DNA from: a virus
Virus genome (UHGV): UHGV-0291998
Direction: 5' to 3' (one strand)
Length of the DNA: 12,507 nucleotides
The notes beneath the pieces were generated by a model, which saw nothing but the letters and a program-made list of their open reading frames with translations, was not told the DNA's origin and searched no databases. The first letter of the stretch is position 1, and each line of letters starts with the position of its first letter. The position numbers and the translations under genes were made by a program. Below are positions 7,073-7,963 of this stretch, piece by piece.

Positions 7073-7093
7073 GGGAAAAAATCGATAAACCAA

Positions 7094-7122
7094 TTGACAG
7101 GTGAAATCGGTAAACCTATTAT
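7094..7122 (+). promoter_or_regulatory. Near-consensus sigma70 promoter (pL-like) driving the downstream cassette
   Basis: TTGACA (7094..7099), 17-nt spacer, TATTAT (7117..7122). ATCG(G/A) operator-half-like motifs at about 7081, 7106 and 7134, the middle one overlapping the -10. Confidence 0.6.
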
Positions 7123-7162
7123 CTTGACATAGGTATCGAACTCACCAAAGCAATTATAGAGG

Positions 7163-7582
7163 ATGAGAAAAATGTCATCGTATATGGGATTACCAACAAA
7201 TCAGCACGATGCTCTTGAGAATATTCAGCTCTTAGTAGGGACTGGTGCACTACTGTATAGCAGCAATAACCCTGAGTTAATTGAACTTGCCAGCTCCATC
7301 CTGGCTGTAACTCAAAAATATAGCCTCACCGCGTCACGTTTATGCAAACAAAATTTAGCTATTAATTCCCAGAATCGGATTCGCACCCAACGCGAAACCT
7401 GCGGCTTAACAACCGCCGAACTCGCTAGGCTGCTCGATCTCGATGAAGAAATTATCATCCAGTGGGAGAGCGGAGAGTACGAACCAACCATCAGCATGCT
7501 TATCCCTCTGGCTAATGTTCTTGGCTGTGATCCAATGTTGTTATTGACTGATGCTTATAAACAAAATCAGGAGGAAGCATAA
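7163..7582 (+). CDS. Protein with unassigned N-terminal domain and C-terminal XRE-type HTH (139 aa)
   Basis: C-terminal ...RIRTQRETCGLTTAELARLLDLDEEIIIQWESGEYEPTISMLIPLANVLGCDPMLLL is an HTH_3/XRE pattern. The N-terminal ~70 aa has no motif I recognise. The start may be the second ATG at 7172 (GAGG upstream). Confidence 0.65.
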   Translation: MRKMSSYMGLPTNQHDALENIQLLVGTGALLYSSNNPELIELASSILAVTQKYSLTASRLCKQNLAINSQNRIRTQRETCGLTTAELARLLDLDEEIIIQWESGEYEPTISMLIPLANVLGCDPMLLLTDAYKQNQEEA

Positions 7583-7583
7583 G

Positions 7584-7775
7584 ATGAAAATGTTCAAAGG
7601 CCTTACCAACGAACCGGAGACAACTTTTCATCACATTGCCGTACTGCTTGAAGCGGGGTTAATCATTTCGGCTTCCGGTGATGAAGAATGTGATGAACTT
7701 TCGGATGATATCTTTTTACTGGCACAACAATACGCCAGAAGCGCATGCGATGCATTTAAGGAGCAAAGAACATGA
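7584..7775 (+). CDS. Small acidic hypothetical protein (63 aa)
   Basis: MKMFKGLTNEPETTFHHIAVLLEAGLIISASGDEECDELSDDIFLLAQQYARSACDAFKEQRT. AGGAGG (7569..7574) 9 nt upstream. The ATG follows the upstream stop by 1 nt. The track start at 7551 lacks an RBS. Confidence 0.5.
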   Translation: MKMFKGLTNEPETTFHHIAVLLEAGLIISASGDEECDELSDDIFLLAQQYARSACDAFKEQRT

Positions 7776-7963
7776 AAACTCCATTAAATATTCTTGAGGA
7801 AGTGGCAGCACAAATAAAAGAGAATACATCAATGCTTGAATTTATATTTAAGAATTCGCCCGACTCAGGAGAGACAGACGATTATTTATGTTGCCTCATT
7901 CGCTCCATGAATAAAACCTGTGAAATGGCTTACGCGTATATCGACACACTGCGCAACGAATAA
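7772..7963 (+). CDS. Small hypothetical protein (63 aa), possibly paralogous to the preceding gene
   Basis: MKTPLNILEEVAAQIKENTSMLEFIFKNSPDSGETDDYLCCLIRSMNKTCEMAYAYIDTLRNE. ATGA start/stop overlap with the upstream gene and AAGGAG upstream. Same length and faint similarity (about 10 identical positions by eye in an ungapped alignment). Confidence 0.5.
   Translation: MKTPLNILEEVAAQIKENTSMLEFIFKNSPDSGETDDYLCCLIRSMNKTCEMAYAYIDTLRNE

Follow-up and report, generated by a model that had tools for sequence, protein, structure and literature searches.

A probable early-left control region downstream of cI

The early-left control region of phage lambda (OL/PL), with an operon of N, ral and cIII that continues to xis and int, provides the reference for the locus described here. 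Cargo genes are also found near the repressor gene, and rexAB and bstA are located between cI and PL and are thought to depend on the repressor promoter for their transcription in the lysogen (PMC8585504). We analyzed the 12,507-nucleotide virus genome UHGV-0291998 (the whole stretch, hereafter referred to as the window), and focused on positions 7073-7963, in which a promoter and three small genes, here named g1, g2, and g3, follow the repressor gene cI. The window represents a lambdoid Escherichia coli prophage with phages phi467 and phiP27 among its relatives, and the cassette is 99.5% identical to the chromosome of strain E110019 (locus L001). The initial annotation had proposed an undescribed prophage-encoded defense or regulatory module; of this, only the hedge "regulatory" and the undescribed function stood, and the defense part did not. 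Our analysis indicates that the feature most likely comprises the promoter-operator and the first three early-left genes of a phiP27/phi467-like lambdoid E. coli prophage, and that a stand-alone defense island is most likely not what g1-g3 form.

The sequence elements described initially were recovered at this position. The cI stop codon is followed after 19 nt by an intrinsic terminator (GCCCACT-CTTA-AGTGGGC at 7047-7064, T8 next), and then by a near-consensus sigma-70 promoter (TTGACA-N17-TATTAT), in the same orientation as cI, as in lambda OL/PL. This promoter is the sole site with at least 10 of 12 matches and a -35 hexamer of at least 5/6 on both strands of the window, and about 0.2 sites with at least 11/12 matches would be expected per window of shuffled sequence. 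No other good plus-strand promoter was detected within 7123-9600, no plus-strand terminator-like site within 7064-9600, and no Rfam RNA family in 7000-8200. Rightward past cI, the g1-g3 genes are followed by plus-strand ParE_like, SPFH, and ORF6N genes. In loci L001, L004, L005, L086, and L089, the plus-strand genes run through to excisionase and integrase, as in the lambda early-left operon, and the window itself stops in an IS3 fragment short of xis/int.

Two operator-like sites overlie this promoter, 25 bp apart (centre to centre), one over the -35 hexamer and the other over the spacer and -10, and share a motif with the cro/cI region as in lambda; unlike lambda OL/PL, only two such sites were recognised at the promoter. 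The degenerate pattern WATCGNNNNNCCNRTW has five distinct sites in the 12.5 kb, compared with 0.19 expected by chance, and these are confined to the cro/cI spacer (three) and the promoter after cI (two). Within the spacer, the site at 6286-6301 is a perfect palindrome (TATCGGAAAGCCGATA), and that at 6247-6262 falls between the two hexamers of a leftward promoter predicted for cro. We also counted exact 8-mers shared between the cro/cI spacer (OR) of each locus and its own cI-g1 spacer, with random intervals of the same locus as the null. The control-region evidence from this immunity type on its own is suggestive, and three points count against it: the WATCGNNNNNCCNRTW motif was defined after four of the sites had been seen, 8-mer sharing was not significant (1 vs 0.72), and neither were matches to the OR palindrome with at most three mismatches (6 vs 3.96 expected). 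Since both of these less biased tests were not significant, we relied on the degenerate motif together with the parallel in other immunity types. There, the shared 8-mers numbered 5 vs 0.42 in L003 (p = 0.0065), 7 vs 0.87 in L005 (p = 0.008), 14 vs 1.09 in L002, and 6 vs 0.78 in L086, and word sharing between OR and PL was significant in the four types tested (phiP27, phi467, PPompW, and mlrA-integrated). A fifth other immunity type, represented by L089, has repeated ATGTAC words in the spacer between cI and the first gene, as seen by eye only. Moreover, a TTGACA- or TTGCCA-type promoter was found directly 5' of g1 in each tested heteroimmune cI-g1 spacer.

These comparisons give good support to the view that cI would use the two operator-like sites to keep the promoter repressed in the lysogen. 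Given the sites on the promoter and the same sharing in other immunity types, expression in the lysogen is unlikely, and the promoter and its operon are probably silent in that state. We consider it highly probable that the feature is the repressor-controlled start of an early-left operon of the PL/OL type. The control region is of standard lambdoid design, and g1-g3 fall into existing PHROG families and are carried by sequenced phages; as a defense candidate, the locus has no importance, being an ordinary early-left control region.

The initial annotation had also equated this position with the rexAB slot of lambda, an equivalence that does not hold: the interval between cI and PL that houses rexAB and bstA (PMC8585504) corresponds here to 7029-7093, which holds the terminator only, and g1-g3 lie past the promoter, where lambda has N. 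Unlike N, the first gene encodes a helical hairpin joined to an acidic XRE fold rather than an arginine-rich N-type antiterminator, and, also unlike the lambda operon, no downstream plus-strand terminators that need antitermination were found. The acidic, XRE-containing g1 product does not show the features of N-type antiterminators, although no formal nut-site search was made.

True homologues of g1-g2-g3 occupy the same position in phi467 (CUW01244-CUW01246). In phiP27, the g1 homologue L10 (NP_543062) is found there as well, and the product of the next gene, L08, terminates in a family I hairpin. Likewise, genes annotated as "transcriptional regulator" in Stx1a-, Stx2a-, and Stx2d-converting (Shiga toxin-converting) phages are g1 homologues in the same position. 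None of these homologues has been characterised, and their names ("DicA," "putative CII repressor," and "CII-like regulator") were guessed from the helix-turn-helix (HTH) domain. The homologues differ from g1 of the window in the N-terminal hairpin, which varies with the immunity type.

Mosaic structure of g1 and the hairpin family

One nucleotide separates the g1 stop codon from the g2 start, g2 and g3 overlap by ATGA, and a Shine-Dalgarno sequence precedes each gene, in line with the tight linkage noted initially; translational coupling of the three genes behind the promoter can be read directly from the sequence. The length of 139 aa given for the first product holds for the longest open reading frame (ORF) only, and the RefSeq annotation and a GAGGA ribosome-binding site favor the start at ATG 7172 (136 aa). 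The acidic nature of the two 63-aa proteins was borne out (Table 1). Their supposed faint mutual similarity was not: g2 and g3 gave a BLASTP E of 5.2 and an hhalign probability of 0.1%, have only the predicted helical-hairpin shape in common, and the idea of two similar 63-aa proteins was dropped on the hhalign value. Pairwise BLASTP among g1, g2, and g3 returned no match, and homology was seen by profile methods only. The three proteins had been described as matching no nameable family beyond the HTH, yet all have strong full-length PHROG matches (g1, phrog_4836, E 2.2e-50; g2, phrog_4587, E 6.5e-33; g3, phrog_6882, E 1.2e-40); two of the three families are without known function, and phrog_4836 is labeled "CII-like regulator." Searching the literature with accession numbers gave no result on these proteins, and their cluster names are all "hypothetical" or "HTH." Finally, the cassette is indeed richer in AT than the window (GC 0.418 vs 0.489), but this is not specific to it: cI (0.426), the cro/cI spacer (0.378), and the intervals 7964-8147 (0.38) and 8148-8722 (0.437) belong to the same low-GC block of about 6000-8550.

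To place g1 in its genomic context, we compared 86 loci: 80 viral contigs selected for carrying a g1-type gene, to which five annotated loci and the window were added. A cI-like ORF ends 97-148 bp 5' of g1 in nearly all 86 loci, across five immunity types, and the same holds in a sixth. The initial annotation had asked whether the cassette is a variable island; g1 after cI is syntenic core, which for this gene is one of the outcomes named there beforehand as speaking against the proposal. The g2-g3 pair, followed by a gene for a 119-aa protein, was present in 30 of the 86 loci, and g1 in all of them. Most of the other loci carry an alternative downstream module, whose proteins, phiP27 L08 and a 66-aa protein, contain a further hairpin that belongs to one superfamily with the N-terminal domain of g1. 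Both downstream modules were seen with all five immunity types.

The N-terminal domain of g1 follows the immunity type. In 85 loci, the type of this domain was completely linked to the cI type (32, 24, 18, 9, and 2 loci), and the g1 C-terminal form and the downstream module assorted freely. Comparison by blastn with L004, L002, L029, L003, and L005 showed that homology ends at about 5956-6008 in the cro tail and returns at 7379/7380, the junction of the g1 N-terminal domain and the HTH; in L028, it returns at 7344 instead. A second joint lies at 7533-7550. The region was matched in 348 of 5426 complete E. coli genomes, with at least 80% coverage in only seven, because most of the matches listed begin at window position 7380 (query position 351). 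With its N-terminal part inside the immunity substitution, the first gene compares with the N gene in imm21 and immP22 hybrids. The cro-like proteins of the window (5929-6216, minus strand) and of L004 (4671-4922) have the C-terminal tail HPSLARTGEVKGLYVPELRSDRDAI in common and differ in the DNA-binding part, which places the right-hand edge of the immunity module within a gene and at a domain boundary as well, as a mirror of the g1 joint.

AlphaFold2 (AF2) modeling of g1 yielded helices 11-29 and 34-76 (pLDDT about 90 over residues 20-50), leading into a standard XRE fold, and the profile of phrog_4587, the g2 family, matches g1 residues 3-58 (E 4e-6). The C-terminal XRE HTH named in the initial annotation was confirmed by Pfam (HTH_3, E 2.3e-10). 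Among the profile and structure searches proposed there, those with PHROG profiles and with Foldseek were informative for the families and for the HTH, for which the closest solved structure was the P22 c2 DNA-binding domain (TMt 0.88, rmsd 0.9), and Foldseek gave nothing for the hairpin: the g1 model had HTH matches only in PDB and BFVD, as did PDB sequence searches with g1. The HTH is under strong purifying selection (pN/pS 0.06 at pS 0.28), and its charge is unusual. Over the 58 residues aligned to P22 C2 the net charge is -6, and with slightly different bounds it is -7 to -9 in all 85 loci, compared with +5 for P22 C2, +8, +2, and 0 for three other HTHs in PDB, +4 for the prophage's own cI, and +3 for its own cro. 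At the start of the recognition helix, D91-E92-E93 is aligned to S31-N32-V33 of P22 C2, and of the seven basic residues in helix 1 of P22 C2, only two remain; the 434 repressor has Q-Q-S at the start of this helix. Given the negative charge, the D-E-E, and the few basic helix-1 residues, canonical operator binding by g1 appears unlikely, and the conserved HTH fold has probably lost DNA binding.

Across the family, at least seven N-terminal domain types are found on a nearly invariant HTH, in single- and tandem-HTH forms. The long homologues P0002, P0007, P0030, P0039, P0067, and P0091 (213-232 aa) carry a second, tandem HTH, and the short g1 form resembles a deletion between the ends of the two HTH repeats (GCDP...LL). 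Several cysteines are conserved in both tandem HTHs (E-x-C-G-L, G-C-D-P, and W-E-C-G).

The free-standing g2 and g3 products are related to such N-terminal domains. Hhalign aligned the g2 family with N-domains of type B (95.5%) and type A (71%), and g2 matched the P0110 N-domain by phmmer (E 1e-7); g3 was related to the P0091 N-terminal domain (hhalign 96.3%; phmmer E 1e-8). In a search of 1.8 billion representative proteins, the g3 domain was found free, N-terminal on single- or tandem-HTH proteins, and fused to a second hairpin, which in these tandem-hairpin proteins showed no relation to family I. The AF2 model of a g3 homologue is a hairpin of helices 4-27 and 34-68 (pLDDT 89-96). For the natural tandem-hairpin protein P0140, modeled as a guide to hairpin pairing, AF2 was confident for the first hairpin and reached a pLDDT of only 42-50 in the second half. 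Purifying selection acts on g2 (pN/pS 0.20) as well as on g3 (pN/pS 0.14). In L089 (3600-5400), the first gene after cI encodes a 70-aa protein without an HTH, followed by g2 and g3 homologues, the latter with a g3-like domain plus a second hairpin; in L091 (4001-5803), each of the two hairpin types, g3-like and g2-like, is joined to HTHs, in proteins of 238 aa and 211 aa. At the level of predicted domains, these architectures show free shuffling of hairpin and HTH modules across distant prophages, and the HTH-less first gene of L089 together with the HTH fusions of L091 indicates that the hairpin, not the HTH, is the constant element of the family. Overall, the three products most likely belong to one family of small, uncharacterised helical-hairpin proteins, with an unusually acidic HTH fused to the hairpin of g1.

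Possible role of the three proteins and competing explanations

Upon induction or infection, the promoter would fire, and g1, g2, and g3 would be the first early-left products. The g1 hairpin is likely to act as the specificity element because the HTH is constant while the hairpin changes with the immunity module; its partner would be encoded in that same module, with cI or Cro as the most plausible candidates. In all these phages, a common effector or interaction surface would be provided by the acidic HTH fold, and g1 may thereby act early on the switch, as a modulator or commitment factor, through protein-protein contacts and not classical operator binding. The g2 and g3 products may bind the same class of partner, or a conserved part of g1, independently of immunity type. 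This mechanism for the three proteins is of low certainty, and we regard a protein-interaction role for g1-g3 as tentative; an early-left operon start joined with such a role, taken as one best explanation, is reasonably probable. Quite unlikely, by our estimate, is the bolder proposal that hairpin proteins constitute an unrecognised layer of the lambdoid immunity switch, in which the g1 hairpin would act on its cognate cI or Cro, the acidic HTH would be DNA-mimicking or an effector, g1 would be an immunity-specific antirepressor or commitment factor expressed from PL as soon as repression lapses, and g2 and g3, whose relatives include hairpins of other immunity types, would act in trans on heteroimmune relatives. 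If true, it would imply cross-talk or competition among lambdoid prophages, including Stx phages, in one E. coli cell.

Two described systems resemble parts of this scheme. According to the published account (PMC11149083), MOR of TP901-1 and phi13 is an HTH-fold antirepressor that binds the DNA-binding domain of CI, and offers a precedent for an early XRE-fold protein that acts on the switch by contact, with phage-specific recognition. Unlike g1, MOR lies at the cro position, has a single HTH domain, and shares no homology, and an interaction of g1 with cI is only hypothesised here. SinR/SinI of Bacillus subtilis likewise combines an HTH protein with an adjacent small free paralogue of its helical non-HTH domain. 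However, the domain order is reversed, the free hairpins do not covary with the g1 hairpin, the acidic HTH may not bind DNA, and no sequence relationship exists.

Several observations weigh against the interpretation favored here. An acidic recognition helix may still be compatible with canonical DNA binding, unlikely as that is, and Pfam, PHROGs, and depositors all name g1 a transcriptional regulator. The g2 and g3 proteins are at least 96.8% and at least 85.7% identical, respectively, in the 30 loci that carry them, alongside five g1 hairpin types, and no covariation supports specific pairing. The linkage of hairpin and cI types could be merely physical, because recombination has no stretch of homology from cI to the HTH at which it could split them, and many of the loci are near-clonal.

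The foremost alternative retains the early-left setting and views g1 as a conventional DNA-binding factor of the Cro/CII/DicA kind, dimerising through its hairpin on a site conserved across these phages, with g2 and g3 as small SinI-like paralogues that form mixed hairpin bundles with it and adjust its activity. The HTH_3 fold with P22 c2 as its closest structure agrees with this, as do the label of phrog_4836 and the depositor names, the homology of g2 to the g1 hairpin, the tandem-HTH variants, which could occupy two half-sites, and an inverted repeat (GCATTA-N8-TAATGC at 8073-8092) as a possible target. It fits poorly with the acidic HTH, in which D-E-E starts the recognition helix and 2/7 basic helix-1 residues are kept, with the first gene of L089, which lacks an HTH entirely, and with the g3 hairpin family, which differs from the g1 N-terminal domain. 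Because g2 and g3 do not covary with the g1 hairpin type, the SinI-like pairing or autoregulation is further weakened, and we consider this alternative unlikely.

Early small acidic phage proteins are often inhibitors, and g1-g3 are three acidic proteins (pI 4.4-4.5) encoded by the first genes from an early promoter. They could accordingly be anti-defense or host-takeover proteins like Ocr, Ral, anti-CRISPRs, or Aqs1, with the many divergent, domain-shuffled hairpin types as the outcome of an arms race and purifying selection as a sign of function. Strict linkage between the g1 hairpin and immunity type does not follow from an arms race with host defenses, and g2, nearly invariant across its 30 loci, does not resemble a protein under diversifying selection. 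No homology to a known inhibitor was seen, although no search aimed at anti-defense families was made. We judge this explanation improbable.

The reading as a lysogen-expressed, self-promoted, horizontally acquired defense or exclusion cassette in a rexAB/bstA/sieB-type slot was the one favored initially. It draws on the strong promoter right after the cI terminator, the low GC, the presence of g2-g3 in only 30 of 86 loci, and the location, the cI-adjacent region being a known cargo hotspot (PMC8585504); with rexAB, bstA, and sieB the locus shares the neighborhood of the repressor gene and a partly variable content. Most of our results run counter to it. Operator-like sites lie on the promoter, with OR/PL sharing in five other immunity types, and a terminator separates cI from g1-g3. 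Unlike the cargo genes, g1-g3 sit behind an operator-bearing early promoter, downstream of PL and not between cI and PL, and have no homology to those genes, while g1 is syntenic core. Where g2-g3 are absent, another hairpin-protein module replaces them, not an empty site or an unrelated defense gene. For g1, PADLOC returned only generic HTH matches (RmrA, CapH, and PDC-M64), g2 and g3 had no match there, and the low GC is common to cI and its neighbors. Defense or exclusion cargo is consequently very improbable. A regulator-antitoxin-toxin addiction module of the paaR2-paaA2-parE2 type has a superficial likeness to the locus (an HTH gene followed by a gene for a 63-aa protein, in a lambdoid immunity region with a YdaS-type cro; PMC8630535), but no match to ParD, PaaA2, or ParE came from Pfam, NCBIfam, or PADLOC for g2 and g3, which are homologues of g1-type hairpins, the sole ParE-like gene lies at 8694-8912, and we dropped the analogy as next to impossible.

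For phage biology, the locus is of modest importance. Homologues of g1 form the first early-left gene of many E. coli prophages, including Stx1a-, Stx2a-, Stx2d-, and Stx2e-converting phages, and have been annotated as repressors by guesswork. If these proteins modulate the switch, this would bear on the commitment of Stx prophages to induction. Four features stand out: a mosaic joint within g1 at a domain boundary, a hairpin tied to the immunity type, an HTH that is acidic, and hairpin paralogues that stand free. On present sequence comparisons, they suggest a possible, unstudied accessory layer of the lambdoid switch.

Feature coordinates and neighboring elements

Table 1. Coordinates of the control elements, genes, and domains of the window
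Feature	Position	Strand	Description
Antiterminator Q gene	1367-1768	-	
YdaS-type cro-like gene	5929-6216	-	Helicase, primase, and antiterminator Q genes are likewise on the minus strand (leftward)
Immunity module, swapped as a block in heteroimmune relatives	6009-7379	.	cro N-terminal part, OR, cI, terminator, PL/OL-like region, and g1 N-terminal hairpin
Three operator-like sites, cro/cI control region	6217-6301	.	6217-6232, 6247-6262, 6286-6301
cI repressor gene, S24-peptidase	6336-7028	+	Pfam Peptidase_S24, E 7.5e-17
Intrinsic terminator, cI transcript	7047-7072	+	7-bp stem (5 GC pairs), 4-nt loop, T8
Operator-like site AATCGATAAACCAATT	7080-7095	.	2-nt overlap with the -35 hexamer
PL-type early-left promoter	7094-7122	+	TTGACA-N17-TATTAT, 11/12 match, best sigma-70 site of the window
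Operator-like site AATCGGTAAACCTATT	7105-7120	.	In the promoter spacer, extends into the -10; also a 3-mismatch match to the OR palindrome
g1	7172-7582	+	136 aa from ATG 7172; pI 4.4
g1 N-terminal domain (aa 1-69)	7172-7378	+	Helical hairpin tied to immunity type
g1 C-terminal part	7379-7582	+	Acidic XRE/HTH_3 fold to about 7533, then a short tail belonging to the downstream module
g2	7584-7775	+	63 aa, pI 4.45; free-standing hairpin, family I; homologous to g1-type N-terminal domain
g3	7772-7963	+	63 aa, pI 4.5; free-standing hairpin, family II (P0091 type)

The inverted repeat at 8073-8092 lies in the 185-bp spacer between g3 and the gene for the 119-aa protein and was scored as minus-strand terminator-like; it could instead serve as a site for protein binding, and the operon has no other gap of any size. 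Further downstream, a 72-aa ORF (8694-8912, plus strand) encodes a ParE_like toxin domain (PF24732, E 3.3e-17; "ParE family toxin-like protein" in RefSeq), overlaps the end of a 71-aa gene (8507-8722, plus strand; phrog_340), and is conserved in the distant locus L089. The two genes may form a toxin/antitoxin-like pair within the early-left operon, and this pair is a better addiction or defense candidate than g1-g3. A hydrophobic 62-aa ORF (9362-9550, plus strand) is translationally coupled to an SPFH/Band_7 lipoprotein-like gene (9547-10374, plus strand; Pfam E 8e-31), a homologue of phiP27 L05, and PADLOC gave no match for either ORF. The ORF6N-domain gene after the SPFH gene spans 10418-11167.

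The left arm of the prophage is interrupted by an IS3-family transposase (12322-12507, minus strand; L001 13919-15132), and the ORFs at 11164-11523 and 11451-11732 look like a single frameshifted gene. The annotation of E110019 shows a frameshift in the Q gene, and a TerB gene there has an internal stop. The window prophage is probably defective, judging from these sequence features. On the minus strand downstream of the Q gene, the Rfam small RNA STnc100 (RF02076) was detected at 645-817, with 108 bits vs a gathering score of 47.

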